Positions 2,130 through 60,420 of a stretch of 64,000 bases of DNA are shown one piece after another. The stretch covers positions 1 to 64,000 of IMG/VR virus record IMGVR_UViG_3300045988_155830, one strand, 5' to 3'. The stretch is from a virus. Within the stretch, counting starts at the first letter, position 1. Every line of letters begins with the position of its first letter. A model generated the notes under the pieces. The model was not told the DNA's origin and did not search any database. It saw nothing but the letters and a program-made list of their open reading frames with translations. The position numbers were made by a program, and so were the translations under genes.

Positions 2130-2170
2130 ATCCATAGTAAATGATTTACTACACAGGAGGTAGCGAAATA

Positions 2171-15206: not shown

Positions 15207-16553
15207 ATGACAAACACATATATAATTGCAAGAAAAATTCAACTGATACCAGTAGGAAAGAAGGAAGAAGTTAATCGAGTTTATACATATATTAAGGATG
15301 GTATAAAATCACAAAATATGGCAATGAACCAGTATATGAGTGCTTTATATACTTCAACTATTATGGAAATGACAAAAGATGATAGAAAAGAATTAAGCAG
15401 ACTATTTGGTAGAATTAGTACAAGCAAATTAGGAAGTGCTTATGATAAAACAATAGAGTTTGCAAAGGGGCTACCTATGGGTGGTGCAATTCAGCAAAAA
15501 GTCAAAAAAGATTTCGATAATGCAATGAAAAAAGGACTTAAATACGGCAAACTATCTTTACCATCATATCGTGATAGCAATCCTCTTTTGGTACACGTTG
15601 ATTATGTTAGACTTCGTTCTACGAATCCACATTTGGATAACGGCTTATATCACAACTATAGTAGCCACGAAGAATTTTTAAATCACTTATATAACGAAAA
15701 ACTTGAATTGTTTATTAAGTTCGCAAACAAAATTACATTCAAACTTGTTTTAGGCAATCCACGAAAATCAGCAGAAATCAGAAGTGTTTTCAAAAATATT
15801 TTTGAGGATTATTATCACATAAAAGGAAGCTCCATTGAACTTGACGGAACGAAAATTATCTTAAATATGTCGATTGAAATTCCGAAAAAGAAAGTTGTTC
15901 TTGACGAAAATGTTGTTGTTGGCGTGGATTTAGGAATCGCAATTCCTGCCGTATGTGCCTTGAATACCAATGACTATGTAAGAAAAAGCATAGGTTCACG
16001 AGATGATTTTTTGAGAGTAAGAACACAGATTAAATCTCAAAGGGACAGGCTTAAAAGGAAGTTGAAATATACAAGGGGCGGTCACGGCAGAGCGAAGAAA
16101 ATGCAGGCTATGGATAGGTTTACTGATTATGAGAAAAATTGGGTACAAACCTACAACCACAAAGTTAGCAAAGATGTCGTTGATTTTGCGTTGAAAAACA
16201 AGGCTAAATATATAAATCTCGAATGTTTAGACGGTTTCAGTAAGGATGATAAAAAGAAAAATTACTTATTAGCGAACTGGTCTTATTACCAGTTGCAACA
16301 ATACATAAAATACAAAGCCGAAAAATATGGAATTGTGGTTAGATTTGTAAATCCCGCTTATACCTCTCAAACCTGTAACTGTTGTGGTAATTTAGAAGAA
16401 GGACAAAGAGTTAAGCAATCAGAATTTATCTGTAAAAATCCAGAGTGTAAAAATTTTGGGAAGAAAATCAATGCTGATTTCAATGCGGCTCGCAACATCT
16501 CAATGTCAACAGACTTTGTTGAGAAAGAAGAAGAAAAAGAAAGAATTACATAA
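15207..16553 (+). CDS. compact type V effector (TnpB/Cas12f-like RuvC nuclease, 448 aa)
   Basis: RuvC-I VGVDLGIAIPAV; RuvC-II YINLECLDG; zinc finger CNCCGN...CKNPECKNFG; RuvC-III INADFNAARNI; ATG 19 nt after the last repeat with RBS GAAGGAAAG; no tnpA nearby. Confidence 0.75.
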   Translation: MTNTYIIARKIQLIPVGKKEEVNRVYTYIKDGIKSQNMAMNQYMSALYTSTIMEMTKDDRKELSRLFGRISTSKLGSAYDKTIEFAKGLPMGGAIQQKVKKDFDNAMKKGLKYGKLSLPSYRDSNPLLVHVDYVRLRSTNPHLDNGLYHNYSSHEEFLNHLYNEKLELFIKFANKITFKLVLGNPRKSAEIRSVFKNIFEDYYHIKGSSIELDGTKIILNMSIEIPKKKVVLDENVVVGVDLGIAIPAVCALNTNDYVRKSIGSRDDFLRVRTQIKSQRDRLKRKLKYTRGGHGRAKKMQAMDRFTDYEKNWVQTYNHKVSKDVVDFALKNKAKYINLECLDGFSKDDKKKNYLLANWSYYQLQQYIKYKAEKYGIVVRFVNPAYTSQTCNCCGNLEEGQRVKQSEFICKNPECKNFGKKINADFNAARNISMSTDFVEKEEEKERIT

Positions 16554-22103: not shown

Positions 22104-22197
22104 GGTTCATTGGTCAAGCGGTTAAGACACTGGCGGAGGTATGTAGTGTAAATCAGGCACACTGCCGGAGACATAGGTTCAAATCCTATATGAGCCA
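22104..22197 (+). tRNA. aberrant tRNA-like gene (94 nt) with an approximately 29-nt insertion or 9-nt loop in the anticodon region; no CCA
   Basis: Acceptor ggttcat/atgagcc; D-arm gtcaagcggttaagac; T-arm ataggttcaaatcctat; the region between D- and T-arms is 44 nt with nested stems ctggc/gccgg and agtgt/acact. Confidence 0.4.
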
Positions 22198-22705: not shown

Positions 22706-23515
22706 ATGAAATATGATGCATTTGATAAAAGAATGAAAAAGTATGAATTTGTGTCGAGACACTATTTGACAACTCGTACTCCTGTTATTATCCGAATTGA
22801 CGGTAAAACGTTTCATACATTCACAAGAGGTTTTCAAAGACCTTTCGATGATGTACTTTCTAAAACTATGCAGGAGACAATGAAATATCTTTGTGAAAAT
22901 ATTCAAGGTTGTGTTCTTGGATATACACAATCAGATGAGATTACTCTTGTCCTTGTTGATTACAAGAATATAGATACTTCTGCTTGGTTTGATTACAATA
23001 TCCAAAAGTGTGCGAGTGTTGCAGCAAGTATGGCAACAATGGCTTTTAATAAATTTTTCAATAACAGAGCCAATAATTATATAAATTCAGTTTTAGAACT
23101 CCAAGATACAGATATTCCATCCGAATTAGAATATATTAAGATACTTAAAAGAGCAATAGATAAAGGTGCAATGTTTGATGCTCGTGTATTCAATATTCCA
23201 AAAGATGAGGCTTGCAATAATTTACTTTGGAGACAGAATGATGCCACAAGGAACTCAATTCAGATGGTTGGCAGAGCATCTTTCTCTCACAAGCAATTAA
23301 ATAAAAAATCCACAAGCAATATTCAGGATATGCTTATGCTTGAAAAAGGCGTAAACTGGAATGATTATCCTACAAAATATAAGAGAGGTAGCTGTTGTAT
23401 TCGTAAGACTGATGAGACAACAGGTAGAAGTAAATGGATTATTGATAATGAAATTCCTATCTTTAAGGGAGATGGTCGAAAGTATGTCAATGATTTAATA
23501 TATGTGGGCGAGTAA
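22706..23515 (+). CDS. Thg1-like protein (tRNA-His guanylyltransferase family 3'-5' polymerase)
   Basis: VIIRIDGKTFHTFT and VLGYTQSDEITLVLV match the Thg1/TLP signatures (RIDGRxFHxF; GQSDEYSF); RBS GAGGATG upstream. Confidence 0.75.
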   Translation: MKYDAFDKRMKKYEFVSRHYLTTRTPVIIRIDGKTFHTFTRGFQRPFDDVLSKTMQETMKYLCENIQGCVLGYTQSDEITLVLVDYKNIDTSAWFDYNIQKCASVAASMATMAFNKFFNNRANNYINSVLELQDTDIPSELEYIKILKRAIDKGAMFDARVFNIPKDEACNNLLWRQNDATRNSIQMVGRASFSHKQLNKKSTSNIQDMLMLEKGVNWNDYPTKYKRGSCCIRKTDETTGRSKWIIDNEIPIFKGDGRKYVNDLIYVGE

Positions 23516-35985: not shown

Positions 35986-36855
35986 ATGATAGATGTTAAA
36001 CCACATAATGAAATCAAATTAAGAGTACCACCCGAACAAAATGGAGATTGTGGCGAAATAGTCATTTTTAATGAAGATTGTTTCGTAACAATGAGTTCTA
36101 TAAGACAATCTTCTATTGATGTAATTTTGACAAGTCCATTTTATAACACAAATAAAAAAGCAGGTAATAACAGAACACTTGAAAATACAAAAGTTTTAGA
36201 TGGTCAATACAATTATGTTAGATATGACACCCACATCGACAATATGACGAATGATGAATACTGTAAATTTACAGAAAAATTATTTAATGAATTTGACAAG
36301 ATATTAAAAGATAATGGTGTGGTTTTATACAACATTAGTTATGGTTCTGAAAATACAGACTGTATGTTTAGGGCAATCAATTCTGTCATTATGAATACAC
36401 CATTCACCATCGGAGATGTAATTGTGTGGAAGAAGAAAACTGCTTTACCAAATAGTTGCTCACCTAATAAACTTACGAGAATTTGGGAGTTTGTATTTGT
36501 TATTTGTAGAAAGATAGAAATTAAATCTTTCAAATGCAATAAGAAAATCACAAGTTATCGTAAGACTGGACAGGCAGCATATGAGAATATCTACAACATA
36601 ATTGAAGCAAGAAACAATGACGGAAGTTGTCCTTATAACAAGGCGACATATTCAAGTGAATTATGTGAAAAGTTGTTGACATTATATGCTCCTGAAGGTG
36701 CAACGGTTTATGACCCATTTTTAGGTAGTGGTACTACTGCTGTTGCTTGTAAGAGATTAAGACTTAATTGTTATGGCTCTGAAATCTCAAAGAATCAATG
36801 CAAATGGGCATTTAACAGATTAAAAGAGGTTACATATGATTCGGGTTCGATATAG
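35986..36855 (+). CDS. DNA methyltransferase (beta-class N6A/N4C; motif IV precedes motif I)
   Basis: ILTSPFY (DPPY-like) is N-terminal and VYDPFLGSGTT (FxGxG) is C-terminal. Confidence 0.8.
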   Translation: MIDVKPHNEIKLRVPPEQNGDCGEIVIFNEDCFVTMSSIRQSSIDVILTSPFYNTNKKAGNNRTLENTKVLDGQYNYVRYDTHIDNMTNDEYCKFTEKLFNEFDKILKDNGVVLYNISYGSENTDCMFRAINSVIMNTPFTIGDVIVWKKKTALPNSCSPNKLTRIWEFVFVICRKIEIKSFKCNKKITSYRKTGQAAYENIYNIIEARNNDGSCPYNKATYSSELCEKLLTLYAPEGATVYDPFLGSGTTAVACKRLRLNCYGSEISKNQCKWAFNRLKEVTYDSGSI

Positions 36856-37267: not shown

Positions 37268-38203
37268 ATGAAACGATGGATTTTAACAATAGAGGAATTT
37301 AATACAAAACCTTTAATTTATGCTGAATCTGCTGAAAAAGCAAGACAGGTTTTTAGCTCTGAAAATGTTACAGATATTCAACCATATACAGATATGTCCT
37401 ATCTTGATACTATTCAAGAGTTGAAAAGCAAATCTGAACTTTTAGCAATACACAAAATTCCTCAAAATAGAATAAAAGAATGGTATAAGTATCAATTACA
37501 AGATGGTATGTTGCGATTTAGGCTATATAAAGACAATACCGATGATTTGTATTATGACATTGTTGAATATCAGTTTATGTCAAATGATAGTTTAGTTTAT
37601 CCTATAACATTTACTTATTCTAATCCTGCCGAAGTTTACGAATTATTTTTTACAGCACCGCTTTCTTGTGAAGTGGTTTCATATAGATTTTACGGTCAGC
37701 CAAAATTATCAAGACCAGCAGAATTAAAAGGAGTAAAGCAAAGTTTTTCAGCGGATTGGATTTCAAACAAGTGCAAGTGTCAATGTGTTGTAAAAGGTGA
37801 TGACCTTTGGATTAAACACAGGGATTTCTTTTCACCCTTACATAGACCATCTGACCCAAGTGACAATGGAACGCCATTGGTATATCGTGCCAAAAAGTAT
37901 TTTGGCATTGATTTAAGTAGCAAAGAAAAGTTTTGTTATTCAGATTGTTGGGGCGAAATCATATTACGAAATGAGGCGTGGATTGTATTCCGAAATTTTG
38001 GTCAGGTAATACGCCGAGATAGACAGTCACCAATTCAAAATATGATTAAAGCATTTTCAAATAGTGATTTTTGTATTAAACACTCAATATCACAATACGA
38101 TTTGAGCAATGGTGATTGGGAAAGATTTTTTGAAAATGTATGTTGTAATTATAAAGCGCAGGTTGATATACTTGGCGCTTCGTTGAAAAATGAAAGGAGT
38201 TGA
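37268..38203 (+). CDS. hypothetical protein (311 aa)
   Basis: Long ORF. Confidence 0.5.
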   Translation: MKRWILTIEEFNTKPLIYAESAEKARQVFSSENVTDIQPYTDMSYLDTIQELKSKSELLAIHKIPQNRIKEWYKYQLQDGMLRFRLYKDNTDDLYYDIVEYQFMSNDSLVYPITFTYSNPAEVYELFFTAPLSCEVVSYRFYGQPKLSRPAELKGVKQSFSADWISNKCKCQCVVKGDDLWIKHRDFFSPLHRPSDPSDNGTPLVYRAKKYFGIDLSSKEKFCYSDCWGEIILRNEAWIVFRNFGQVIRRDRQSPIQNMIKAFSNSDFCIKHSISQYDLSNGDWERFFENVCCNYKAQVDILGASLKNERS

Positions 38204-39264
38204 TTATATGTCTTTCTATTACAGCAATGAAATTGTTTTTAGAGGACATCCCTGACAAAGTTTGCGACCAAATAAGTGATGCACTTCTTGATGCTTTTTT
38301 GAAACAGGATAAACATAGCAGATGCGGCATTGAAACTGTCGGTGGCAAAGGAAAAATATTCGTAACAGGTGAAGTAACTTCAAGAGCATTAGTCAATGTA
38401 ACAAACATTGTTAAAGAAGTTCTTCGTGATGTTGGATATGACCCAAATAAATATGAAGTTATTGATAACATCGGTAAACAGTCACCTGATATTGCGCAGG
38501 GCGTTGATGATGGAGGTGCTGGAGACCAAGGAATGATGTTCGGGTATGCGTGCAGAGATACAGTGGATTACATTCCTACGGCAATGGCTATCCTTCAAGA
38601 TTTATCGGCATTCTATGATAGACTTGTCAAAATTGATGACAGATTTCTCCCTGATGGCAAGGCACAGATAACAGGATTCTATGATGAAAATAACAAATTG
38701 GAGTATATAAATGATTTTATTATCTCATATCAGAACAAAGAAACAAATCGAGCAGAGACAGATAAAATTCTTACTGACTACTGTGAGACACTTTGTTCAA
38801 ATTACGGAATTGCAATCAGAGAGTTTCACATCAATCCGACAGGTAAATTCTTAATCGGTGGTTTTGATGGAGATGCAGGTCTAACCGGCAGAAAAATTGT
38901 AGTTGACAATTATCAGTCTTTTGCAAATGTCGGAGGTGGTGCATTCTCTGGTAAAGACCCAACAAAAGTTGACCGTTCAGCAGCGTATAAGGCAAGACAG
39001 CTTGCAATCGAATGTCTTGATACATCGCCCGATGTCAACTGGTGTGAAATTCAGATTTCTTATGCAATAGGTATGGATAAGCCTCTTGGAATTTATGCAA
39101 AGACAGATAAGGGAGTAATTGATATACCGGATTGTTTCTATGATGAATGCACACCAAAAAGGATTATCGAAGATTTGCATTTGATAGATGGAACATTTAA
39201 GTTTAATGATACTGCAAAGTTTGGTCACTTCGGTCATTCCGAATTTCCGTGGGAGTCAAGATAA
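38200..39264 (+). CDS. metK: S-adenosylmethionine synthetase (MetK), with a probable +1 indel near the N-terminus
   Basis: GGGAFSGKDPTKVDRSAAY signature and PDKVCDQISDALLDA. An ATG at 38208 with an AGGAG RBS opens another frame encoding ..FRGHP, which meets the canonical GHPDK only if one C of the CCC run at 38250-38252 is removed. Confidence 0.85.
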   Translation: MIICLSITAMKLFLEDIPDKVCDQISDALLDAFLKQDKHSRCGIETVGGKGKIFVTGEVTSRALVNVTNIVKEVLRDVGYDPNKYEVIDNIGKQSPDIAQGVDDGGAGDQGMMFGYACRDTVDYIPTAMAILQDLSAFYDRLVKIDDRFLPDGKAQITGFYDENNKLEYINDFIISYQNKETNRAETDKILTDYCETLCSNYGIAIREFHINPTGKFLIGGFDGDAGLTGRKIVVDNYQSFANVGGGAFSGKDPTKVDRSAAYKARQLAIECLDTSPDVNWCEIQISYAIGMDKPLGIYAKTDKGVIDIPDCFYDECTPKRIIEDLHLIDGTFKFNDTAKFGHFGHSEFPWESR

Positions 39265-42502: not shown

Positions 42503-43702
42503 ATGAGTAAAGTTAAGGTCAAAGTAGTAATAGGTAGTAATTATGGAGATGAAGGAAAAGGATTGGCAACACATTTTTTCTCTCAATCCGAGAAAAATAA
42601 GTGCTTAAATGTTTTATTTAATGGAGGATGTCAACGAGGTCATACTGTCGAACTTAAAGATGGCACAAGGCATATTTTCCATCATTTTGGAAGTGGCACA
42701 TTTGATAATGCTCATACATACTTTGACCAAAACTTTATGGTTAATCCTGCAATCTTCATTCAAGAATATAATGAGCTTAAAAAATATGGCATCAAACCTA
42801 TATGTATGATTTCTCCTAAATGTAGAGTAAACACTATGTATGATATGTTTATCAATCAAATTGTTGAAATACATAGAGAGAATAAAAGACACGGTTCTTG
42901 TGGTTATGGTATTTGGGAAACACAAAAAAGGTATGATGATGGTGTTTTTGCATTAGATTATAACCAACTATCTCATATGAACGATAAAGATGTTGTAGAT
43001 TATCTACATAATATAGCAAATGTTTATTTACCTAAAAAATTATTTGAATACGGAATAACAGAAATTCCACAAGAGTATCAAGAGTTGATAAAGTCTAAAG
43101 GGTTAATTGAACATTTCGTTAGTGATTTAAGAGAAATGCAATATATAACTTTTATGTGTGATTTCGATAGAATCCGAAATAAGTATAATACCATTATATT
43201 TGAGGGTGCGCAAGGTCTTGAACTTGATGAGAATAATTTAAAAGCATTGCCATACATCACAGCAAGTAATACTACTTCTTATACACCCATTCAAAGAGTT
43301 AATGATTTTGATTGTGATGTTGAAATTTGTTATATTACAAGGTCTTATTTTACCAGACACGGAGCAGGAACATTGCCAACAGAATGTGATAAGTCGGATA
43401 TAAATGAAGATATAACTGACCTTACAAACTGTTATAACGATTACCAGCAAACAATAAGGTATGGAATGTTTGATTATGATGAGTTTATCAATAGAGTGAA
43501 AACTGATATACAAAGAGCAAGAGAAAAAATCAGCGGAACAAAAACTTCTGTTATGATTACTCATTTGAATTATACGGATAATGAAATTGCAGGTAATTGT
43601 AAAATTCAAGATTTGTTAAAACATTTCGATAATATATATTTATCTAATACAAAATTTTCAGAAGATATAAAGAGAACCAACAAAGGAAGTACAATACATT
43701 GA
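42503..43702 (+). CDS. adenylosuccinate synthetase-like enzyme (PurA/PurZ family)
   Basis: N-terminal VVIGSNYGDEGKG P-loop typical of PurA; 399 aa, shorter and more divergent than housekeeping PurA. Confidence 0.65.
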   Translation: MSKVKVKVVIGSNYGDEGKGLATHFFSQSEKNKCLNVLFNGGCQRGHTVELKDGTRHIFHHFGSGTFDNAHTYFDQNFMVNPAIFIQEYNELKKYGIKPICMISPKCRVNTMYDMFINQIVEIHRENKRHGSCGYGIWETQKRYDDGVFALDYNQLSHMNDKDVVDYLHNIANVYLPKKLFEYGITEIPQEYQELIKSKGLIEHFVSDLREMQYITFMCDFDRIRNKYNTIIFEGAQGLELDENNLKALPYITASNTTSYTPIQRVNDFDCDVEICYITRSYFTRHGAGTLPTECDKSDINEDITDLTNCYNDYQQTIRYGMFDYDEFINRVKTDIQRAREKISGTKTSVMITHLNYTDNEIAGNCKIQDLLKHFDNIYLSNTKFSEDIKRTNKGSTIH

Positions 43703-44439
43703 TTAAAATTAACACCCCCCTGCCAAATCTTATATGTGGAGAGTGTTTAACAGAATTAAGCAAAATACCAAACGAGAGCATTGATTTAATTGTAACAGAC
43801 CCACCTTATAAAATTACTTCTCGTGGGAACGCCGGAAATTCAGGTGGTATGTTACAAAAGAAAATCAATATGCGAGGTCAAGTATTTAAGCATAATAACA
43901 TTGATTGTTCAGAATATGCATCGGAGTTTTATAGAATATTAAAAGATGGCAGTCATTGTTATGTAATGACCAATCATATCAATCTTATTCATATGTTGAA
44001 CACTTTTACTGATTTAAGGACAGAGGAAGAAAAAGATAATGGCGTTAAGCCCTATGGTTTCCATTTTATTAAGTCTTTGATATGGGATAAAGGAAACAAA
44101 ATAATGGGTCAATTCTATATGTCACAGTTTGAATACATATTATTTTTCCGCAAAGGTCGTGGCGTAAGAATTAACCATTGTGGAACAAGCGATATTTTAT
44201 CTATACCAAACATCAAATTAAAAGGTATTGACGGAAAGAATTTACACGATACTGAAAAGCCTGTTAAGTTGATGAAAATATTGATTGACAATTCTTCTCA
44301 ACAAAACGGTATAGTATTAGACCCATTTATGGGTATAGGTAGTACAGGCATTGCTTGTAAAGAGCTTGACCGACAATTCATAGGTATAGAAATAGACCAA
44401 CAATACTACAATATTGCACAGGAACGAATTAAAGGATAA
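43699..44439 (+). CDS. DNA methyltransferase (beta-class N6A/N4C)
   Basis: LIVTDPPYK precedes VLDPFMGIGSTG. Confidence 0.8.
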   Translation: MIKINTPLPNLICGECLTELSKIPNESIDLIVTDPPYKITSRGNAGNSGGMLQKKINMRGQVFKHNNIDCSEYASEFYRILKDGSHCYVMTNHINLIHMLNTFTDLRTEEEKDNGVKPYGFHFIKSLIWDKGNKIMGQFYMSQFEYILFFRKGRGVRINHCGTSDILSIPNIKLKGIDGKNLHDTEKPVKLMKILIDNSSQQNGIVLDPFMGIGSTGIACKELDRQFIGIEIDQQYYNIAQERIKG

Positions 44440-48094: not shown

Positions 48095-49126
48095 GTGAGT
48101 ATGATTGATATTAAAAAGATAATCCAAAACACAGAGTATGATTTTTTACGAACCAATGAAAATCTTGGTAGTAATATTTTTCTACTCGGATTTGGTGGCA
48201 GTTATGCTTATGGTACAAACAATGAAAACTCTGACATTGATATTAGAGGTATAGCCACAAATAGTAAAAGAAATATTCTTACAGGTAATGATTTTGAACA
48301 AGTTGTTGATATTGATACCGATACAACTGTATATTCATTCGATAAGATTATCAAATTGTTATGTTCTTGTAACCCGAATACAGTAGAAATGTTAGGATTA
48401 AAACCCGAACATTATTTCTATCTTACAAATATTGGTAGAGAACTCATAGAAAATAAATCATTATTCTTGTCAAAAAGAGCAATCCATTCATTTGGCGGAT
48501 ATGCAAACGCCCAGCTGCGAAGGTTGGAAAATAAATCTGTTCGTTTGGTTAGTCAAAGTCAGCAGGAGCAACATATTTTGAAAAGTATCGAACACGCTTC
48601 TGCTGATTTCAGAGAAAGATATTTTGATATGCCGGAAGATGCAATTACTCTGTATGTTGATAAATCGGAGCAGGAAGGTTATGATACGGAAATTTTCTGC
48701 GATGTTACATTAAAGCATTATCCTCTCCGAGATTATAAAGGAATGTTTTCCGATATGGGTACAATTATAAAGTCTTACTCAAAAATCGGTAAGAGAAATG
48801 AAAAGGCTATCGGGCATAATAAGTTGGGTAAACATATGATGCATCTTGTTCGTCTTTACCTTATGGCATTTGATATTCTTGAAAAAGGCGAAATCAATAC
48901 TTATCGAGATAAAGAACACGATTTCCTTATGAAAATAAGAAATGGTGGTTATCTCGATGAAAATAGACAGCCAACAAAGGAATTCTATGAAATTGTTGAT
49001 GAGTATGAAAACAGGCTTGATAGACTCAAGGCAACAACGGATTTGCCTGAAACAGTAGATATGAACAAGGTTATGGATTTTGTAGCCAAAGTAAATGAGA
49101 TGGTCGTTTCAGGAGGTAATATATGA
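48095..49126 (+). CDS. nucleotidyltransferase-fold protein (Pol-beta superfamily)
   Basis: GFGGSYAYGTNNENSDIDIRG matches the GS..D.D motif. Confidence 0.5.
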   Translation: MSMIDIKKIIQNTEYDFLRTNENLGSNIFLLGFGGSYAYGTNNENSDIDIRGIATNSKRNILTGNDFEQVVDIDTDTTVYSFDKIIKLLCSCNPNTVEMLGLKPEHYFYLTNIGRELIENKSLFLSKRAIHSFGGYANAQLRRLENKSVRLVSQSQQEQHILKSIEHASADFRERYFDMPEDAITLYVDKSEQEGYDTEIFCDVTLKHYPLRDYKGMFSDMGTIIKSYSKIGKRNEKAIGHNKLGKHMMHLVRLYLMAFDILEKGEINTYRDKEHDFLMKIRNGGYLDENRQPTKEFYEIVDEYENRLDRLKATTDLPETVDMNKVMDFVAKVNEMVVSGGNI

Positions 49127-50073
49127 CAAGGGAAGAAGTGCTGAATTCTATTCAGTTGAAAAAGAGATTCTGTAAAGATTGTAATATACCGATTGCCGTG
49201 TTTGATAATCCGTATTTTTGTGAAAGACTTATAACACTTGATACAATTTTTAATTGTGTTGAACAGTTTAATCTGTTTTGTGTAGAAATGCAGCAGTTCA
49301 ATAATGAGCAGGATTATTTTGAATACTATAATTTAGTAAAAGATAAAATGATTTCGGATATTAAAGGAAATCATACATATCAATCTTTCAATATAGATTT
49401 AAGTGGTAAATCTGAAACTGCCCTTAATATAGAAAGAGCAAAAGTCGGAAAGAAAAACCTTTATGTTGAAAATAATGACGGAAAGGCATTTATATCTATT
49501 GATATGAAAAAAGCAAACTTTTCATCAATGAACTTCTATTCGAGAGATATTTTCGATTGCGACACCTGGGAAGATTATGTTGGAAAATTTACGAATAGTT
49601 TACATATTCAAAATAGTAAATATATCAGACAGGTTGTATTAGGTGCTTGTAATCCTAAAAGACAAATTCAGTATGAGCATTCATTGATGTTAAAACTCTA
49701 TCTACATATCAAAGACACACTTAATGACAATGGTTTCACGGCTTACAGTATTGGCGAAGATGAAATACTTATAGAAGTAGGTCAGTTCCACCATCCGCTT
49801 AATAAGTTAAAAGAGGTTATTGATTCTTGTCCTTTAGGTATTGGTAATCTTGTAAGAGTTGAAATGTTTGATTTACAGAAAGCAGGAGATTATGGGTGGT
49901 TAAAAGTTATTTATGATGATAACCAGACCGTTAAATTCAAGTGTATTGATTCAGAGATATTTCATCAAATAGTTAAACACTATTACAATATACCAATTAC
50001 AGAAAATGACCTTGTATTTAGACATAATGGCAGACTTGCACGATTTTTAGAGGAGGTCAAAAATCCGTGGTAG
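49123..50073 (+). CDS. hypothetical protein (316 aa)
   Basis: Overlapping start and stop codons. Confidence 0.5.
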   Translation: MTREEVLNSIQLKKRFCKDCNIPIAVFDNPYFCERLITLDTIFNCVEQFNLFCVEMQQFNNEQDYFEYYNLVKDKMISDIKGNHTYQSFNIDLSGKSETALNIERAKVGKKNLYVENNDGKAFISIDMKKANFSSMNFYSRDIFDCDTWEDYVGKFTNSLHIQNSKYIRQVVLGACNPKRQIQYEHSLMLKLYLHIKDTLNDNGFTAYSIGEDEILIEVGQFHHPLNKLKEVIDSCPLGIGNLVRVEMFDLQKAGDYGWLKVIYDDNQTVKFKCIDSEIFHQIVKHYYNIPITENDLVFRHNGRLARFLEEVKNPW

Positions 50074-51392
50074 ATATAAAAATGCCTATGCCGGTTGAAT
50101 TTGCATTAAACAGATTGCATTCAAATGGTTATGAAGCTTATATCGTTGGTGGATGTGTACGTGATAGTATTATAGGAATTCAACCTCACGACTGGGATAT
50201 TTGCACATCTGCTTTGCCAGAGCAAGTCCAAGAAATATTCAAAGACTTAAAAGTAATTCCCACTGGTTTACAGCACGGAACAGTAACCGTTGTTTTTGAA
50301 GATGGCGATTGCAAGCAATGTCTTGAAATCACTACTTACAGAATTGACGGAGAATATAAAGATAACCGACACCCTGAAAATGTTAAGTTTGTATCTGACC
50401 TATCACTTGATTTAATGCGCAGAGATTTTACAATCAATGCTATGGCTTATAATGATAAAGAAGGCATCATTGATATGTTTGGCGGAGTTGAAGATATTGA
50501 AATGGGCTGTTTGAGATGTGTAGGAAATCCAGATGATAGATTTCAAGAAGATGCGCTCCGCATTATGAGAGCTATTCGCTTTGCAATTAGATATGATTTG
50601 CAAATTGATGATGAGATTATTAAATCAATTCAGAAAAACAAGATACTTTTGAAGAATGTATCTGTTGAAAGAATTTGTGCTGAATTGACAAAGATACTTG
50701 AATCAAATATCGGCAATGACGGTTCAAAGAAAAACAGGATTGAACTGATTGGTTATCTTATTGATTTTTTACAGGTAGTTCTTGATTACAAGATTGATTT
50801 TGATGAGCAAGAGGTTTACAACAGATTGGCTTTTGTTGAGCCAAATGTTCCATTAAGACTCGCAATCTTGTTTGATACTACTAATATTATGAATATCCTT
50901 AAAGATTTAAGGTTTTCAAACGATGTTGTATTTGCAGCACACGCTATCCGTGAATATGGTCATAAAATTCTTGACGAGAAAGATAAGCGGAGTAGCAAAT
51001 CAAGCATTGCGGCAGCAGTCAATAATCTGCATATAGGAGATAGAGAAGATAATGTTGAAGATGATAGCTCATTGCGTTACTATGCGAGACGGTCATTAAA
51101 AAACATTCATTCTTGCTCATTTGAATCCATAATATCGTTTGCAAAGGCTTATGTCAATGATGAATATATGTTTGTTGCATTAAACATTCTTCAAAGGCAA
51201 ATGCAATTTTGTAAAGAGAATGACGTATATTGCCTTCAGTATCTTGCCGTAAATGGCAATGATATTATGCAAGCCGGATTTGAGGGTAAGGATATAGGAG
51301 ATATATTAAATAAACTTCTCGATATGGTTATGCGAGAAGATGTCCGAAATAACAGAGAAGAATTGTTGGCTGCCGTATCAAAATTTAGATAA
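50067..51392 (+). CDS. tRNA nucleotidyltransferase (CCA-adding enzyme), class II
   Basis: GGCVRD, DWDI, RRDFTINAMAY and ERIxxE-like motifs. Confidence 0.8.
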   Translation: MVDIKMPMPVEFALNRLHSNGYEAYIVGGCVRDSIIGIQPHDWDICTSALPEQVQEIFKDLKVIPTGLQHGTVTVVFEDGDCKQCLEITTYRIDGEYKDNRHPENVKFVSDLSLDLMRRDFTINAMAYNDKEGIIDMFGGVEDIEMGCLRCVGNPDDRFQEDALRIMRAIRFAIRYDLQIDDEIIKSIQKNKILLKNVSVERICAELTKILESNIGNDGSKKNRIELIGYLIDFLQVVLDYKIDFDEQEVYNRLAFVEPNVPLRLAILFDTTNIMNILKDLRFSNDVVFAAHAIREYGHKILDEKDKRSSKSSIAAAVNNLHIGDREDNVEDDSSLRYYARRSLKNIHSCSFESIISFAKAYVNDEYMFVALNILQRQMQFCKENDVYCLQYLAVNGNDIMQAGFEGKDIGDILNKLLDMVMREDVRNNREELLAAVSKFR

Positions 51393-51797: not shown

Positions 51798-52654
51798 ATG
51801 TATAAGAATCCATTTAATTATACGGGTGCAAAATTCAAGTTGCTCCCACAAATATTGCCTCTTTTCCCGGACAAAATTAACACATTTGTTGACTTGTTCG
51901 GGGGAGTGGAGAATTAACATTCAATACACAAGCAGAGCATTACATATATAATGAGAAATCAAAACAACTGGTTAATATTTTCAATAATCTTGATGATGAT
52001 TTCATAATAGATGTTGAAAAGGTTATTCAACAATATGGTTTATCTAAAGAGAATAAACAAGGATTTCTTGATTTGAGAACATATTATAATACAAATCTTG
52101 GAACAATGTCTGATAGAGAAAATGCCATAATTTTGTATTGTTTATTGACTCACGCTTTTAATTACCAAATAGCATTTAATTCAAAAGGTGAGTATAATAT
52201 GCCATCTGGTAAAGGCAGGAGTTATTTTAGTCCACAACTTAAAGAAAAGCTGACTGCTTATATAGATAAGAATAAACAAAATGATATAAGGTTTTTATCA
52301 TATGATTTTGTTGATATAAATATTCCGTCTTTAGTTTCTTCTGATGATGCTTTTATATATGTTGACCCACCATATTACATAACAGTTGGTGCATATGAAA
52401 GAGATTATTTTTGTAAGTGGTCGGAAGAATACGAGAACAAACTACTTGCACTTCTTGATGATTTATCTACAAAGGGTTATAAATGGGCATTTTCAAATGT
52501 TTTTGAACATAAAGGTAAATCTAATGATTTATTAAAAAGTTGGGCAAGTAAATATACAATTCATTATCTCAATATGGACTATAAGAATTGTAATTATCAT
52601 ACAAAAGATAAGTCTGCAAATAGTAGTGTTGAGGTTTTAATTACTAACTATTAG
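51798..52654 (+). pseudogene. Dam-class N6-adenine DNA methyltransferase with a -1 frameshift in a G5 run (around 51903-51907)
   Basis: Frame 1 reads MYKNPFNYTGAKFKLLPQIL...VDLFGG then stops; the continuing frame reads (G)SGELTFN...YVDPPYY; one extra G restores DLFGGSGELTF (FxGxG) followed by DPPY. Confidence 0.6.
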
Positions 52655-54313: not shown

Positions 54314-54872
54314 AACTATTTTAATTGATATAGATGATACCATTGAAAACCTTTGTGAAACCTGGGTTTCCTGGCTTAATAAACAATATGGTACTTCTGT
54401 TAAATATGATGAGATAACGGAATGGGATATAAGTAAATTCTTCCCATTATTAACCAAAGAACAGGTTTATGAACCATTACATAATCCATCATTATGGAGT
54501 TATGTTGAACCAAAGCCTGGAGCAGTTGAATATGTAAAGAAACTAATTGATGAAGGTTACAATGTTTATCTTTGCACAACAACTGATTATAGAAATGTTA
54601 AACCAAAGTTTGAGAGTGTTATTCAGAAACATTTTCCTTATATAAAGTGGAGTCAGGTTATTATTGCAAGTCAAAAACAAATGATAAACGCAGATGTTCT
54701 TATTGATGATGGAATACATAACCTTGAAAACGGTAATTATATCAAAATTCTTGTATCTGCTTCTCATAACAAAAACTATGATGCTGCAAGCAATGGTATG
54801 CACAGAGCCGACACTTGGGAAGAAATATATTCACTTATTCATTCATTGATAGGAGAACCATATGAGAGTTGA
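54306..54872 (+). CDS. HAD-superfamily 5'(3')-deoxyribonucleotidase-like hydrolase
   Basis: N-terminal ILIDIDDTI (DxDxT). Confidence 0.55.
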   Translation: MSKTILIDIDDTIENLCETWVSWLNKQYGTSVKYDEITEWDISKFFPLLTKEQVYEPLHNPSLWSYVEPKPGAVEYVKKLIDEGYNVYLCTTTDYRNVKPKFESVIQKHFPYIKWSQVIIASQKQMINADVLIDDGIHNLENGNYIKILVSASHNKNYDAASNGMHRADTWEEIYSLIHSLIGEPYES

Positions 54873-55428
54873 TATTTTTAATACATCAAATCAGTATAAC
54901 TTAATTCTTGCTGACCCACCCTGGAAACAGGCTAAAGGCGGCAAGAAGAAAGTTAGACCGGTCAGCAGTGGAACTGCACTTGACTACCCTGTATGTTCTC
55001 TTGATGAAATCAAAAGACATTTGGCACAAGCTACAAGTTTATGCAAGGGGGATAGCGTTCTTTTCTTATGGACTATTGATAAGTATTTATTTGAGGCACA
55101 ACAGATTGCAGAATCATTAGGTTATAAGTTACACGCAAGAATGATATGGAATAAGGTCACAGGTATTCCAGCAGCATTTACAGTTAGATATGGTCACGAA
55201 TATTTATTGTATATGTATAAAGGCAAACTTATCCCTGTGGCTACCGAAGAAAGAGGTAAGATACATACCGTTTTTACGGAAAAAGTTCAGAAACATAGTA
55301 AAAAGCCGGAAATTTCTTATGAAATTATCAATCGCCTTTATCCTAATTTAAAAAAGTTAGAGATGTATGCAAGAGAAGAAAGAGATAATTTCGATGTCTG
55401 GGGTAATGAAGTACCCGTACAAAACTAA
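54862..55428 (+). CDS. MT-A70-family adenine methyltransferase
   Basis: LILADPPWKQ (DPPW). Confidence 0.65.
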   Translation: MRVDIFNTSNQYNLILADPPWKQAKGGKKKVRPVSSGTALDYPVCSLDEIKRHLAQATSLCKGDSVLFLWTIDKYLFEAQQIAESLGYKLHARMIWNKVTGIPAAFTVRYGHEYLLYMYKGKLIPVATEERGKIHTVFTEKVQKHSKKPEISYEIINRLYPNLKKLEMYAREERDNFDVWGNEVPVQN

Positions 55429-55448: not shown

Positions 55449-55655
55449 ATGTTTAAATGTAAAAATTGTGGAACTGAAATGGAGAGAGTTTATTCTTTTG
55501 AAAATGAGAATGAAAGTTATCAGCAGATGAAGTGTCCTAACTGTGGCGGTGCTACAAAAAAGAGACCTATCGTGTATGACGATAACGGCAATCTCGTAAC
55601 CAATTTCAAGAAGAACAATAAAAAGAAAAAGCAGAGAAAGGCTAAAGAAGAATGA
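55449..55655 (+). CDS. hypothetical zinc-ribbon protein
   Basis: CKNCG...CPNCGG. Confidence 0.45.
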   Translation: MFKCKNCGTEMERVYSFENENESYQQMKCPNCGGATKKRPIVYDDNGNLVTNFKKNNKKKKQRKAKEE

Positions 55656-58600
55656 TTATCAATGATAAGAGAGCATTAGCCTATATCGTAACCATTGATG
55701 AAATTAGACCTATTCCGAATTACGATAGGGTTGAACACGCTCGTACAAATGGATGGTGGTGTGTAACTCGTCTTAATGAATTAAAAGTTGGAGACAAAGC
55801 GGTTTATTTTGAAGTCGATAGCAAAGTGCCGGCAGATGATGAGAGATTTAGTTTCCTTGAGGCTAAACACTACAAGATTAAAACTCAAAAAATGTGTGGA
55901 GTTTTTTCACAAGGTTTGCTAATGCCAGTTACATTATTTCCTGAATTAGCGGATATGGAAGTCGGAACAGATGTTACTGATATTCTTAAAGTTACATATT
56001 CTGTCATTGAAGATAATACAAGAAAATCCAAAAATGGAGACCCTGATGCAAAATATAAGTCTATGGCACAGCGACATCAAAAGATTTTTAAGAAACCTAT
56101 TGTGCGAAAGATTATGAAACACAAGCTCGGCAGAAAGATTATGTTCCTTTTCTTTGGAAAAAAGAAAGATAAACCATTATCATTTCCGACACATTTCCCA
56201 TTTGTTCATAAGACAGATGAAGAAAGGTGTTTAATTGGCGATACAAAAGTCCAAACAAACAATGGTGTTTTAAAAATTGCCGACATAGTAAATAAAGAGT
56301 TGCCTGTTGAGGTTTTATCTTATAATGAGAAAACAAAAACAGTTGAATATAAACCGATTATTTCTTATCAAAAATTTGCGAAGAAAGAAGATGAAGATTT
56401 AATCGAAATAAAATATCCTTACAGATTTGGAAATCAAAAAACAAATACTATTCGTTGCACCCCAGACCATAAATTTTATAATGGTTCAACTTATGTACGA
56501 GCTGATGAAATTCATCAAGGTGATAAAATTTTTATTCACCATCATTGTTATGATGACTATGTTATTCAAGTTGTTTTTGGAATGCTACTTGGAGATTCTT
56601 CAATTTATTATGATAAGAGAAGTGGTAGTAATAATATCCGCATCCAAACCTCACAAGGCGAAAAACAATTAGATTACTTAAAAATGAAGCAATCGTTGTT
56701 TGGAGAACAATTCTTTAAGATTTCCAAATGTAAAAGCGGATATTGTGACAATGTGGTTTATAAAGGGTGTCTATCGGCTGATTACAATATTTCTAAAGCT
56801 GTATTAGAAAATTGTTTTATTAACAATAAGAAAACAATTACACCTACAATGTTAAAATATATTACGCCACTTTCTCTCGCAATTTGGTATATGGATGATG
56901 GCAACCTTAAACATAAATATGATAGTTGTAGTCCATCAATTATTATTTCTACTTGTGGTTTTTCAAAAAATGAAAATGAATTGCTAATTGATATGTTGAG
57001 AAATAATTTTGGAATTGAGTGCAACTTGCGTAGAGAGAAAAATAAATATTGGAGCATTTATATTACAACTGAAGGAACAAAGAAGTTCCTAAAACTCATT
57101 ACTCAATATATCCCACCGTGTATGAGGTATAAAACATTACAAGAATATGAGAATGATTATTTTTCTATCCAAGATTTAAGATATAAAAAGCAGGAACGAT
57201 TGATGCCCATACCAGTAATATCAATTAAAAAATATAAGGGTATTAGACGATATAAAACTGTTTTTGATATTGAAGTTAAAGATAATCATAATTTCTTTGC
57301 GAACAATATATTAACTCATAATTGTGAGAATATGCCGTGGGTTCTTGGATATGAAAGACCGTTAATCGTGACTGAAAAACTTGATGGTTGTCTTGATAGA
57401 GATGTTAGCGTTGTTACAGATGCTGGTTCGTTTAAGATTTCAGAAATTGTAAACAAAAAACTTCCTGTGAATGTTCTCACTTATAATTCTAATTTGAATA
57501 TTTGCGAATACAAACCGATTGTAGATTATCACAAATGGGAAAGAGTATCGGATATGTATGACATAGTAGTATCTCAACAAGGTTATAAGTGTGAAAACAA
57601 ACCGAAACATATTCGCTGTACAAGTGAACACAGCTTTTATGTTGGTAACAATCAATACATAAAAGCTAAAGACTTAAAAAATACTGATATAATTTATCAT
57701 AGATATGAAATTATTGATACATTAGTAAAAGAAATCTTATTGGGAATTTTGCTTGGAGATGCCTCATTATCTTCTAAATACGGAGTAATAAATGGTGGCG
57801 TTGATTTTAGTCATTCTATTAAACAGAAAGATTATTTTAATGAGATAAAAAGATTGTTGGGTCAAAATATTTCAATAGATACAACAAAATCGGGATATAA
57901 TTCTGAAATGTTAAGAGGTCATTTTTATACTAATTCAGAATTTAAGGAGTTGTCAAATAAAATATGTGTAAGAAATCACAAAAAATATGTAACACAAGAA
58001 TGGGCAAATGAATTAACTCCCATATCTCTTGCATTTTGGTATATGGACGATGGAACTATCTCAAATGCTGATTCAAAGTTGTCAAGACCTACAATTAGTA
58101 TTGCTACAAATGGTTTTAGTTATGAGGAATGCGAAAACTTAAAAAGAGCATTATCAACAAAGTTTAATATTGAATCAGACATAAAAATGGGAGAATCATA
58201 TAAAGGGAATACACTCTATATGAATACAATGAATACGGCTAAATTTGCTTCCTTGATTGCTCCATATATTTGCGATGGTATGAAGTACAAGTTGCCAAAA
58301 TCAATGAGAAATATTAAGTATTGTCTCGGAGATTATATAGCGAGCAATGGTAGCTCAATTACTCCCACGAAAATTATTTCTGTAAGAAAAATTGACAATT
58401 ATAACCGCAAATATGTTTTTGATTTAACAGTCAAAGATAACCATAACTATTTTGCAAACGGTATTTTAACACACAATACCTCATCTACATATATTCTTGA
58501 AAGAAAAGGCAAGAAAAAATTCGAGTTTTATGTTCTATCAAGAAATGTTCGTCAAAAGACACCTGACCAAAAGTGCTACCACGATAAGAATATTTACTGG

Positions 58601-59011
58601 GATATGGCTATTAAAAACAATATTGAGCAACGCCTAAAAGAATATCTTATTGCAAATCCAGACTTGAAATATGTCTGCATACAAGGGGAGTCTGTTGGTA
58701 GTGTTCAAGGAAATCCACTTAAATTAAACGAAGATGAACTCTATGTATTTAACTTCATTCGTTCCGATGTGGGTAGATTATCATCTATTGACGGAAAAGA
58801 AATTATTGAGAGTTGGGGTATGAAATTTGTCCCAATATTGGAAACAGAATATTATGTACCAACTGATATGGAAACATTCAAAGAGTATGCAACTGCAAAA
58901 TCTGTTGTAAATCCGAATGTATTGCGTGAGGGCATTGTGCTTCGTGACCCGACCAATGATTTTAGCTTTAAGAATGTTTCCCGTGAGTATTTATTAAAAC
59001 ACGGAGGTTAA
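55652..59011 (+). CDS. RNA/DNA-ligase-family nucleotidyltransferase (KxDG) interrupted by two LAGLIDADG inteins; the extein is about 391 aa
   Basis: Extein motifs TEKLDG|TSST (motif I), IQGESVG (motif IV) and FSFK (motif V); two insertions with the intein hallmarks Cys1 and ..THN followed by C or T. Confidence 0.65.
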   Translation: MIINDKRALAYIVTIDEIRPIPNYDRVEHARTNGWWCVTRLNELKVGDKAVYFEVDSKVPADDERFSFLEAKHYKIKTQKMCGVFSQGLLMPVTLFPELADMEVGTDVTDILKVTYSVIEDNTRKSKNGDPDAKYKSMAQRHQKIFKKPIVRKIMKHKLGRKIMFLFFGKKKDKPLSFPTHFPFVHKTDEERCLIGDTKVQTNNGVLKIADIVNKELPVEVLSYNEKTKTVEYKPIISYQKFAKKEDEDLIEIKYPYRFGNQKTNTIRCTPDHKFYNGSTYVRADEIHQGDKIFIHHHCYDDYVIQVVFGMLLGDSSIYYDKRSGSNNIRIQTSQGEKQLDYLKMKQSLFGEQFFKISKCKSGYCDNVVYKGCLSADYNISKAVLENCFINNKKTITPTMLKYITPLSLAIWYMDDGNLKHKYDSCSPSIIISTCGFSKNENELLIDMLRNNFGIECNLRREKNKYWSIYITTEGTKKFLKLITQYIPPCMRYKTLQEYENDYFSIQDLRYKKQERLMPIPVISIKKYKGIRRYKTVFDIEVKDNHNFFANNILTHNCENMPWVLGYERPLIVTEKLDGCLDRDVSVVTDAGSFKISEIVNKKLPVNVLTYNSNLNICEYKPIVDYHKWERVSDMYDIVVSQQGYKCENKPKHIRCTSEHSFYVGNNQYIKAKDLKNTDIIYHRYEIIDTLVKEILLGILLGDASLSSKYGVINGGVDFSHSIKQKDYFNEIKRLLGQNISIDTTKSGYNSEMLRGHFYTNSEFKELSNKICVRNHKKYVTQEWANELTPISLAFWYMDDGTISNADSKLSRPTISIATNGFSYEECENLKRALSTKFNIESDIKMGESYKGNTLYMNTMNTAKFASLIAPYICDGMKYKLPKSMRNIKYCLGDYIASNGSSITPTKIISVRKIDNYNRKYVFDLTVKDNHNYFANGILTHNTSSTYILERKGKKKFEFYVLSRNVRQKTPDQKCYHDKNIYWDMAIKNNIEQRLKEYLIANPDLKYVCIQGESVGSVQGNPLKLNEDELYVFNFIRSDVGRLSSIDGKEIIESWGMKFVPILETEYYVPTDMETFKEYATAKSVVNPNVLREGIVLRDPTNDFSFKNVSREYLLKHGG
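56228..57322 (+). mobile_element. intein 1 (365 aa, LAGLIDADG homing-endonuclease type)
   Basis: Begins CLIGDT; internal LLGDSSIYY and AIWYMDDGN; ends NILTHN with C+1 (CENMP). Confidence 0.75.
57389..58477 (+). mobile_element. intein 2 (363 aa, LAGLIDADG type), inserted directly after the KxDG glycine
   Basis: Begins CLDRDV; internal LLGDASL and AFWYMDDGT; ends GILTHN with T+1. Confidence 0.75.
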
Positions 59012-59415: not shown

Positions 59416-60420
59416 ATGAAATCAATTGTCAACTATAAAAGAATATGTGATAAACCATTCCTGATTATGATGTGTGGCCTGCCCGGAAGTGGCAAAAGTA
59501 CATTTGCTGAAAATTCCATCACGGTAACTTCGGGTGTAAAGCAGTATAAACCTGTAATCCATTCTTCTGATGGTTTACGCAAAGAGATTTATGGAAATGA
59601 ATCAACACAAGGAGATGCTAATAAGGTATTTGGAGAATTACATAAACGTATTAAGAACGACCTTATTGCCGGCAAAGATGTTATTTATGATGCGACTTGC
59701 ATTAAAAAGAAACAGCGTATTCAGTTTCTCAAAGAATTAAAAAATATATCTTGCACTCCTGTCTGTATTTGTATGGCAACAGAATATTCACTTTGTCTAT
59801 ATAACAATGAGCATAGAGAAAGAAAAGTACCTGTTGATGTTATTAAGCGTATGCAAATGAACTGGCAGCCTCCTCATTATAATGAAGGCTTTGAACAGAT
59901 TACATATATATTTTCTTATCTTGATAAAAATTACAATATAGTCAATGCAAGTCAAAAAGATAAATATAACCTCGGAAAATTCTTTGAAATAGCTAATTCA
60001 TTTGACCAAGAAAACCACCATCATAAACTTACACTTGGCAAACATTGTGAAAATGCAGGTCAAGGAATACAAGCAACAAACCCAGATAATTTTTGGCTTT
60101 TGATTGCTACTTTATTACACGATAATGGCAAGTTATATACAAAGACAAAAACTAATGCAAGAGGTATTGAAGATGGTGATTGCCACTATTACCAACATCA
60201 TTGTGTTGGAGCATATAATGCAATGTTCTATCTTCATAGTTTTGAAGATATTGAAGAAAAGAACATTGCATATGTTACGAATCTGATTTATTACCATATG
60301 CACCCGTATAATGAGTGGAAGCATTCTGAAAGAGTGCATAATAAAGATAAGTTACTTCTTGGCAAAAAATTATATAACGATATTCAACTGTTGCACGAAG
60401 CAGATTTGCTTGCACATTGA
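59416..60420 (+). CDS. polynucleotide-kinase-like P-loop kinase fused to an HD-domain phosphohydrolase
   Basis: N-terminal MMCGLPGSGKST (Walker A, T4 Pnk-like); C-terminal LIATLLHDNGK (HD motif). Confidence 0.6.
   Translation: MKSIVNYKRICDKPFLIMMCGLPGSGKSTFAENSITVTSGVKQYKPVIHSSDGLRKEIYGNESTQGDANKVFGELHKRIKNDLIAGKDVIYDATCIKKKQRIQFLKELKNISCTPVCICMATEYSLCLYNNEHRERKVPVDVIKRMQMNWQPPHYNEGFEQITYIFSYLDKNYNIVNASQKDKYNLGKFFEIANSFDQENHHHKLTLGKHCENAGQGIQATNPDNFWLLIATLLHDNGKLYTKTKTNARGIEDGDCHYYQHHCVGAYNAMFYLHSFEDIEEKNIAYVTNLIYYHMHPYNEWKHSERVHNKDKLLLGKKLYNDIQLLHEADLLAH

Follow-up and report, generated by a model that had tools for sequence, protein, structure and literature searches.

A single extra base in a phage metK gene creates a CCC_UGA junction that may be read by +1 ribosomal frameshifting

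The metK gene of a large gut phage, which encodes S-adenosylmethionine (SAM) synthetase, is interrupted after its fifteenth codon by one extra base, and we propose, with about even confidence, that the full-length enzyme is made by +1 ribosomal frameshifting at the resulting CCC_UGA junction. The gene lies on the plus strand of a 64,000-nucleotide (nt) stretch of viral DNA (IMG/VR record IMGVR_UViG_3300045988_155830, positions 1 to 64,000), hereafter called the window, which is a gene-dense, single-strand accessory region of the phage genome. A search of GenBank for a close or near-identical phage found none. The break recurs in other phages and in cells, where it is restricted to one site; it spares the catalytic set, the frame downstream of it is under purifying selection, and the gene keeps its synteny with methyltransferase genes. 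Actual shifting, its efficiency, and a use of the shift rather than its mere tolerance are the parts of this explanation that we infer.

Results

The first-pass annotation of this DNA described a near-canonical MetK at 38200-39264. The open reading frame (ORF) found there on the plus strand, 354 codons from a TTG, has the three-domain MetK architecture (S-AdoMet_synt N, M and C; PF00438, PF02772 and PF02773, above the Pfam curated cut-offs with E values of 1e-19 to 4e-36). It aligns with E. coli MetK structures over residues 15-353 (E 3e-68), and both motifs quoted in that annotation are present. At the N terminus, however, the likeness fails: the structure alignment opens with EDIPDK against the universal motif, EGHPDK in E. 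coli, with Ile in the place of the catalytic His14, and the preceding residues are unrelated, the N-terminal strand being replaced. Among the 120 closest homologues, 117 start M..YSNEIVFRGHPDKVCDQIS; the remaining three are P0003 and P0028, which start MKLFLEDIPDK like the window, and P0006, which starts MCDQIS.

A six-frame search located the absent N terminus, MSFYYSNEIVFRGHP followed by a stop, just upstream of the junction and in another frame. The true start of metK is ATG 38208, and its zero frame ends at UGA 38253-38255. The Shine-Dalgarno sequence AAAGGAG (38193-38199, plus strand) stands 8 nt 5' of this ATG, while TTG 38200 has a spacing of 0 from it and ATG 38227 has no Shine-Dalgarno sequence. 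Since in-frame relatives read CAT CCA GAT AAA or CAT CCT GAC AAA at this place, the window gene has one extra base after codon 15; its DNA reads AAAGGAG-N8-ATG TCT TTC TAT TAC AGC AAT GAA ATT GTT TTT AGA GGA CAT CCC TGA C AAA GTT TGC GAC, and the gene is join(38208..38252, 38254..39264). Its first segment (38208-38255, plus strand) consists of the 15 zero-frame codons and the UGA, includes the catalytic His14 and fits the N-terminal consensus of the 117 homologues. The second (38254-39264, plus strand) consists of 336 codons in the +1 frame, DKVCDQIS...PWESR, and holds all other catalytic and ligand residues.

The conceptual +1 product is 351 amino acids (aa) long and aligns with E. coli MetK, to which the window protein is ~44% identical, in exact register over its first 60 residues. 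It retains H14, D16, K17, E42, E55, Q98, D118, K165, D238, R244, K245, K265, K269 and D271 (E. coli numbering), and only in this product, not in ORF 38200-39264, are His14 and the GHPDK motif found. Its gating loop is shortened, as are two surface loops. Its trans-frame junction peptide reads ...VFRGHPDKVCDQ..., and the junction stretch to be expected in the full-length trans-frame protein is ...IVFRGHPDKVCDQ.... The window MetK is no recent host-derived fragment, an origin that the first-pass annotation had allowed for. It is one of a large family of short MetK (~340-355 aa) associated with viruses, in which there are 490 relatives from IMG/VR alongside metagenomic proteins in the thousands.

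Two other origins of the offset were rejected. An intron, intein or homing-endonuclease insertion in the N terminus is out, because the missing N terminus lies immediately upstream, offset by one base. Stop-codon reassignment is out as well, because reading UGA as sense leaves the frame broken, and UGA terminates 17 of the 67 window ORFs.

At least 8 independent assemblies, which come from different projects, contain the identical junction. For loci L004-L007 the sources were a Logan SRA assembly, an NCBI metagenome-assembled genome, an ENA assembly and a second Logan run; two IMG/VR contigs (91 and 128 kb) and two metagenome contigs (L132, L146) carry it too. Moreover, the same break occurs in phage lineages with 68-85% protein identity and other neighbouring codons (L008, L011/L166 and L009/L010), the L009/L010 variant reading CAT CCT TGA T. 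All frameshifted phage lineages possess the 15-nt context GTTTTTAGAGGACAT followed by CCY, and the sequence common to them all is GTTTTTAGAGGACATCCY; the 15-mer occurs in 1 of 51 unique in-frame relatives, and with CCY in none. When the frameshifted L011 is compared with the in-frame L025, the flanks are 93-100% identical, and 8 substitutions plus the inserted T fall within ~20 nt. Likewise, identity between the window and the in-frame L001 is 97-100% outside the stretch from -130 to -9. Judged from these comparisons, the cassette looks as if it moves as a short patch, by a recombination that is visible in phages. In IMG/VR, 3 contigs showed a T insertion at the junction, and none showed an insertion of A, C or G or a one-base deletion.

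We also scanned metagenomes and genomes with the DNA pattern GGN CAY CCN TGA YAAR N6 GAY CAR ATH, for which ~3 chance matches were estimated. The scan returned 76 metagenome and 37 genome loci; 7 of the genome matches are due to chance and the other 30, like the 76 metagenome loci, are metK with CCY_TGA at the His-Pro|Asp-Lys junction. In the metK loci the conserved (L/F)FTSESVTEGHP is encoded upstream in frame 0, the UGA follows, and DKxxDQISDA with an ORF of ~370 codons continues in frame +1. All 30 come from Candidate Phyla Radiation (CPR) bacteria, archaea of the DPANN group (Diapherotrites, Parvarchaeota, Aenigmarchaeota, Nanoarchaeota, Nanohaloarchaeota) or unclassified archaeal assemblies; the named taxa are Saccharibacteria, Nealsonbacteria, Berkelbacteria and other Patescibacteria, and Aenigmatarchaeota, Nanoarchaeota and Iainarchaeum. 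Two of the frameshifted records are closed chromosomes (CP070804.1 and CP179887.1), and the genome scan gave no frameshifted metK in ordinary bacterial phyla. The CPR and DPANN groups share one closely related MetK type.

Over 89 unique contexts the P-site codon was CCC in 30 and CCT in 59, and CCA or CCG in none; Gly was GGG in 71, His was CAT in 82, and C followed the UGA in 83. The cellular layouts read GAG GGG CAU CCC UGA C or GAA GGG CAU CCU UGA C. Most cellular alleles have a +1 frame that is closed 5 codons upstream and offers no start codon from there to the junction, so internal initiation cannot explain the conservation; as the main route it was rejected for this reason and because there is no ribosome-binding site at 38227.

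The nucleotide context of the junction is deeply conserved even in in-frame genes. In E. coli K-12 metK (L215, NC_000913.3 3086706-3087860), codons 12-17 are GAA GGG CAT CCT GAC AAA, with the rare Gly codon GGG, one T duplication away from the CPR/DPANN cassette GAA GGG CAU CCU UGA C. In the frameshifted DPANN loci L216 and L217, which are Aenigmatarchaeota-like, a gene with a LAGLIDADG_3 domain ends ~50 nt 5' of the metK start, as a gene of its own and not as an insertion in metK.

The frequency of the allele was sampled in three neighbourhoods of 120 clusters each (90% identity): that of the phage gene and those of an Aenigmatarchaeota and a Patescibacteria query. In neighbour-joining trees the frameshifted alleles are scattered, at four separate positions among phage MetK and about five in the DPANN neighbourhood, where they have a mutual synonymous divergence (dS) above 1 and are equally close to in-frame genes. 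The frameshifted state has therefore been gained or lost repeatedly, or has moved by recombination. Ten alleles were found without the DNA pattern, from truncated protein models, and all ten carry CCY_TGA at this junction; no other truncation class occurred among the 360 neighbouring clusters. Given that metK is otherwise intact in 115-116 of 120 neighbouring CPR/DPANN clusters and that the frame breaks at exactly one place, translational rescue at that place is the best explanation. We consider this restriction to one site the strongest argument that the downstream frame would be used.

Selection was assessed in the clade whose members have exactly the cassette of the window, in which 19 variable codons are synonymous only, against 6 that change an amino acid (p ~9e-7 versus neutrality). 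This test replaced dN/dS between frameshifted lineages (0.07-0.11), which is confounded because the frameshifted alleles are polyphyletic. The zero-frame N terminus is also conserved between lineages with synonymous differences. Both frames are constrained up to the junction, and most cellular alleles lack a start codon in the +1 frame. The window, like nearly all alleles whose contigs are long enough to judge, has an uninterrupted downstream ORF. The scattered disruptions and relaxed selection of a pseudogene were not found: the window has a single break followed by an intact 336-codon ORF, and the exception is L004-L007, which is discussed below.

The candidate +1 frameshift cassette, AGA GGA CAU CCC UGA C (38241-38256, plus strand), was recognised by its layout: a purine-rich Shine-Dalgarno-like tract, an E-site CAU, a P-site CCC that could re-pair as CCU, an A-site UGA and a 3' C. 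The window thus combines a shift-prone P-site codon with an in-frame stop in weak context (UGA C). The tract reads AGAGGA-CAU-CCC in phages, GGAGGGG-CAU in CPR and GAAGGG-CAU in DPANN, and the same codons are found in in-frame relatives and in E. coli.

In the proposed mechanism, translation would initiate at ATG 38208 and proceed until peptidyl-tRNAPro sits on CCC with UGA in the A site. Part of the ribosomes would then terminate and release a 15-residue peptide, while the others would slip +1, from CCC to CCU, and continue on GAC AAA to yield the 351-aa MetK with all catalytic residues in register. The output of MetK would be set by the frameshifting and, because the complete enzyme requires it, would probably be low or conditional.

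The codon bias at the site, although very strong relative to each gene's own usage, was dropped as proof of programming because in-frame relatives and E. coli share GGG-CAT-...-GAC. We noted that AUGUCUU at the start of the gene (38208-38214) can pair with AGGACAU (38243-38249), which immediately precedes the shift codon. G-U/G-C changes preserve this pairing in L008 (AUGUCCU) and L011 (AUGUUCU), but it is partly trivial, as AUG pairs with CAU, and the overall fold of the region is not significant. A 94-nt tRNA-like gene at 22104-22197 (plus strand), which lies within a cluster of 10 tRNAs and whose sequence recurs in IMG/VR contigs 3300045988_143165 and 3300045988_138921, was rejected as a shift-driving tRNAPro. 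ARAGORN labels it tRNA-Pro(agg), but its fold is poor, its anticodon stem is mismatched and there is no evident four-base anticodon to match CCCU; with Infernal, the Rfam tRNA model accommodates it only through an insertion-bearing loop of 29 nt at the place of the anticodon loop.

The count of four DNA methyltransferases in the first-pass annotation agrees with the domain matches. Two are N6/N4 DNA methyltransferases (PF01555) at 35986-36855 (E 2e-28) and 43699-44439 (E 3e-33), one is a D12/Dam-class adenine methyltransferase at 51798-52654, which is split, and one belongs to the MT-A70 family, at 54862-55428 (E 4e-20); all are on the plus strand. That annotation had seen the frameshift in the Dam-class gene, which we confirmed, and had overlooked the one in metK itself. 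The N-terminal 39 codons of the Dam-class gene end at 51917, and for the rest the -1 frame is open from 51893; the frame is lost through a one-base deficit in a G5 run at 51900-51904 (TTC GGG GGA GTG), where G6 would restore FGGSGELTF. It could reflect phase variation, decay or a homopolymer sequencing error, and it is different in kind from the break in metK.

The adjacency of metK and DNA methyltransferase genes is conserved in viral genomes. A methyltransferase lies within 3 kb of metK in 57 of 79 related IMG/VR loci. In 49 of the 79 it is of the PF01555 type, like the gene at 43699-44439, and on the metK strand; it is upstream in 39 of these 49, where it usually abuts metK directly (median gap 138 nt). 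L001, L004 and L009 carry PF00145 and PF01555 genes. The metK gene is one member of a conserved methyltransferase-MetK module, and its product may plausibly provide SAM for the methylation of phage DNA. The earlier proposal that the phage makes its own SAM for self-methylation is reasonable, and the synteny supports it without proving it; in the form stated it is not supported, as the complete enzyme requires a +1 frameshift and one methyltransferase in four is disrupted. The presence of a phage MetK beside methyltransferases is genuine and conserved, but is already known (PMC8223999; bioRxiv 10.1101/2021.01.05.425418).

Directly 5' of metK lies a conserved ORF of 311 aa (37268-38203, plus strand) with no Pfam or PHROG match; its homologues (304-311 aa) precede metK in L001-L006. 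Elsewhere the window holds a set of RNA and tRNA repair genes (22706-23515, 48095-49126, 50067-51392, 55652-59011 and 59416-60420) alongside the 10 tRNA genes. Its members are a Thg1-like tRNA-His guanylyltransferase, RlaP, a CCA-adding enzyme, an RNA ligase and a polynucleotide-kinase-like protein, and the set looks like a counter-measure to tRNA-cleaving host defences. The 1119-aa product of the RNA ligase gene (55652-59011, plus strand) matches pretoxin-HINT, Intein_splicing and LAGLIDADG domains flanked by the RNA-ligase OB-fold and catalytic parts, a pattern that we read as two putative inteins.

A divergent adenylosuccinate-synthetase-like protein of 399 aa is encoded at 42503-43702 (plus strand), with a Pfam match that covers only 1-305 of 416, and an HD-domain protein is encoded 18 kb from it at 61948-62565 (plus strand). 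An identity of the former as PurZ, in a 2-aminoadenine pathway of the PurZ/DatZ type, was rejected, given that by sequence it matched only ordinary PurA structures. The accessory region also contains a reverse-transcriptase-like gene (PHROG 1423), a transposase and an integrase-family gene (10764-12176, 15207-16553 and 2141-3124, all on the plus strand).

Discussion

Judged from sequence, ribosomes likely shift at the CCY_UGA of metK and make MetK, and several observations weigh against a programmed use of such a shift. In our three neighbourhoods the frameshifted alleles make up 3/120 phage, 5/120 DPANN and 3/120 CPR clusters (2.5-4%), and no clade in them has the frameshift fixed, so that a conservation across orthologues like that of prfB is not seen; by a rough estimate, made without computation, the allele frequency fits near-neutral recurrence of one indel. 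The Shine-Dalgarno-like tract of the phages amounts to a 4-nt GAGG core, and no stimulatory RNA structure was detected downstream of the metK junction (z = +1.06). The codons GGG, CAT and GAC at the site are shared with in-frame relatives, E. coli metK reading GAA GGG CAT CCT GAC, and the CCY could partly stem from the mutational route, a duplication of T or C in CCT GAC. Finally, L004-L007 (protein P0003), which have the same cassette, show in four independent assemblies an in-frame deletion of 84 nt, or 28 residues. It removes NKYEVIDNIGKQSPDIAQGVDDGGAGDQ, including GKQSPDI, the methionine-binding Gln and the GAGDQG motif. This deletion suggests decay, and the MetK of these loci is probably catalytically dead.

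Several of these points would follow from tolerated corrective frameshifting with no regulatory role, a possible though doubtful account that keeps the mechanism and denies only its adaptive use. A one-base duplication in CCT GAC would create the slippery CCY_UGA_C, enough MetK would still be made, and the allele would drift wherever demand for MetK is low or the population small. The distribution fits, being that of a polyphyletic minority whose members are as near to in-frame alleles as to one another, and the favourable context pre-exists in in-frame genes, including that of E. coli. "Corrective" or "savior indel" frameshifting is a recognised class (PMC5009743), and the pheL study warns that shifting at CCC_UGA can be incidental (PMC3082878), which also tells against a programmed site. 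This account does not lead one to expect that the frameshifted alleles of the genome scan would be confined to CPR, DPANN and unclassified archaeal assemblies although E. coli shares the context, nor that the cassette and its exact 15-nt upstream context would turn up in four phage backgrounds through a patch-like import, unexpected for a neutral or slightly harmful allele.

An inactivated metK on its way to loss, in a phage that no longer needs the gene and makes no functional MetK, is improbable in our judgement. For a phage metK is accessory, the allele is in the minority, L004-L007 have lost catalytic motifs in addition, and a neighbouring methyltransferase is broken too. Inactivating disruptions would be scattered, however, and all truncated alleles break at one site; nearly all judgeable alleles, and the window too, keep an intact downstream ORF, synonymous changes are in excess within the frameshifted clade, and metK of CPR and DPANN is otherwise strongly conserved. 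Still further down the scale, and very unlikely, is a start at ATG 38227 in the +1 frame (MKLFLEDIPDK...), which would give a MetK-like protein without His14 and the N-terminal strand; instead of a synthetase, it could be a subunit that binds SAM or ATP or acts as dominant negative. There is indeed an ATG of this frame 9 codons 5' of the junction, gene callers annotate P0003 and P0028 in this way, and MetK active sites lie at subunit interfaces. But a ribosome-binding site is missing before 38227, the same ATG is out of frame in in-frame relatives, where it is part of Asn-Glu (AAT GAA), the zero-frame N-terminal peptide stays conserved across lineages that show synonymous changes in it, and most CPR/DPANN alleles have no start codon in the +1 frame. 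That the extra C is a sequencing or assembly error in a metK that is simply in frame is scarcely credible. The second frame break of the window does fall in a homopolymer, the G5 run of the Dam-class gene, and a few long-read-like metagenome contigs have multiple metK breaks (L098, L111, L122 and L123), but the base recurs across the independent assemblies listed above and in diverged lineages with different flanking codons, and the break is present in the closed genomes CP070804.1 and CP179887.1.

A +1 shift in metK would have several relatives among known recoding sites. The +1 site of prfB reads AGG GGG UAU CUU UGA C, and the cellular metK layout GAG GGG CAU CCC UGA C is almost superimposable on it. 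Both genes are interrupted near the start of the ORF, with a C directly after the in-frame UGA. In prfB the P-site tRNA slips +1, as it would in metK; in both, the zero frame encodes a short peptide, ~3 nt separate a purine-rich Shine-Dalgarno-like tract from the shift codon, and the E-site codon is wobble-read (UAU in prfB, CAU in metK). They differ in that the P-site codon is CCC/CCU (tRNAPro) in metK and CUU (tRNALeu) in prfB, that the metK allele is a scattered minority whereas the prfB site is the ancestral majority state, and that release factor 2 has no obvious reason to regulate MetK; in addition, the phage tract AGAGGA is weak.

With regard to the P-site and A-site motif, metK is identical to E. 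coli pheL and to the tail gene tsh of Listeria phages A118, A500 and PSA, in which tRNAPro re-pairs on CCU (PMC3082878; PMC5009743). In experiments these CCC_UGA sites show 2-15% shifting, 15% in pheL, and up to 60% with stimulators (same sources). There the shift extends the protein at its C terminus or occurs incidentally where a leader peptide ends, whereas in metK it would be needed, 15 codons in, for ~96% of the enzyme. The UCC_UGA of antizyme resembles metK as a +1 shift at an early stop in a gene of small-molecule metabolism, and offers a conceptual precedent for metabolite feedback via frameshift efficiency; unlike metK, for which no sensor is shown, antizyme is eukaryotic, polyamine-sensing, universally conserved and experimentally proven. 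The G-run of herpesvirus thymidine kinase is a corrective case in which an indel in an enzyme gene is offset by low-level frameshifting and the non-shifted product is useless, as would hold for metK; it is a homopolymer, while the metK indel recurs at one codon junction in phages, bacteria and archaea and forms a stop-codon shift site (both examples from PMC5009743).

Among viral enzymes, the window MetK resembles those of the Streptococcus Javan and 12/111phiA prophages and of a viral metK survey in being short, in conserving the substrate motifs and in standing apart from host MetK, and known phage and prophage metK genes are likewise often near DNA methyltransferase genes (PMC8223999; bioRxiv 10.1101/2021.01.05.425418). 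Those genes are in frame; the window allele is frameshifted, and we did not find the cassette described in the open-access literature. No metK frameshift appeared in open-access work that links metK or SAM synthetase with frameshifting, TrmD, CPR or DPANN, nor in extracts of a 2016 recoding review, which is not proof of absence.

As a further and speculative step, the metK frameshift could be a feedback device that senses SAM and has independent origins in phages and in CPR/DPANN cells, an idea to which we attach a low probability. Slip and termination would compete at CCY_UGA, and each would be tied to a methylation that requires SAM. The glutamine of the GGQ motif in release factors, on which termination depends, is methylated by PrmC or Mtq2. 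On the side of slipping, N1-methylation of guanosine 37 (m1G37), a SAM-dependent modification made by TrmD in bacteria and Trm5 in archaea, suppresses the +1 slip of tRNAPro, and its loss leads to +1 shifting at proline codons (PMC7577736, PMC8643618). Low SAM would then mean more slipping, weaker termination and more MetK, and high SAM would shut synthesis down. If this were true, metK would be the third metabolite-linked +1 recoding circuit beside prfB and antizyme.

If ribosomes do shift at this junction, metK joins a very short list of cellular and phage enzyme genes that depend on +1 recoding, and the same solution would have arisen at the same codon junction in a phage MetK family and in the CPR/DPANN type. 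The break would link SAM supply, tRNAPro m1G37 or release-factor methylation, and the maintenance of the reading frame in a way that is directly testable. Moreover, gene callers turn such alleles into an N-terminally truncated "MetK" without His14 (P0003, P0028, P0006, P0135-P0140, P0166, P0270, P0288 and P0298), and therefore metabolic reconstructions of CPR and DPANN, as well as surveys of phage auxiliary genes, may misjudge these genes.

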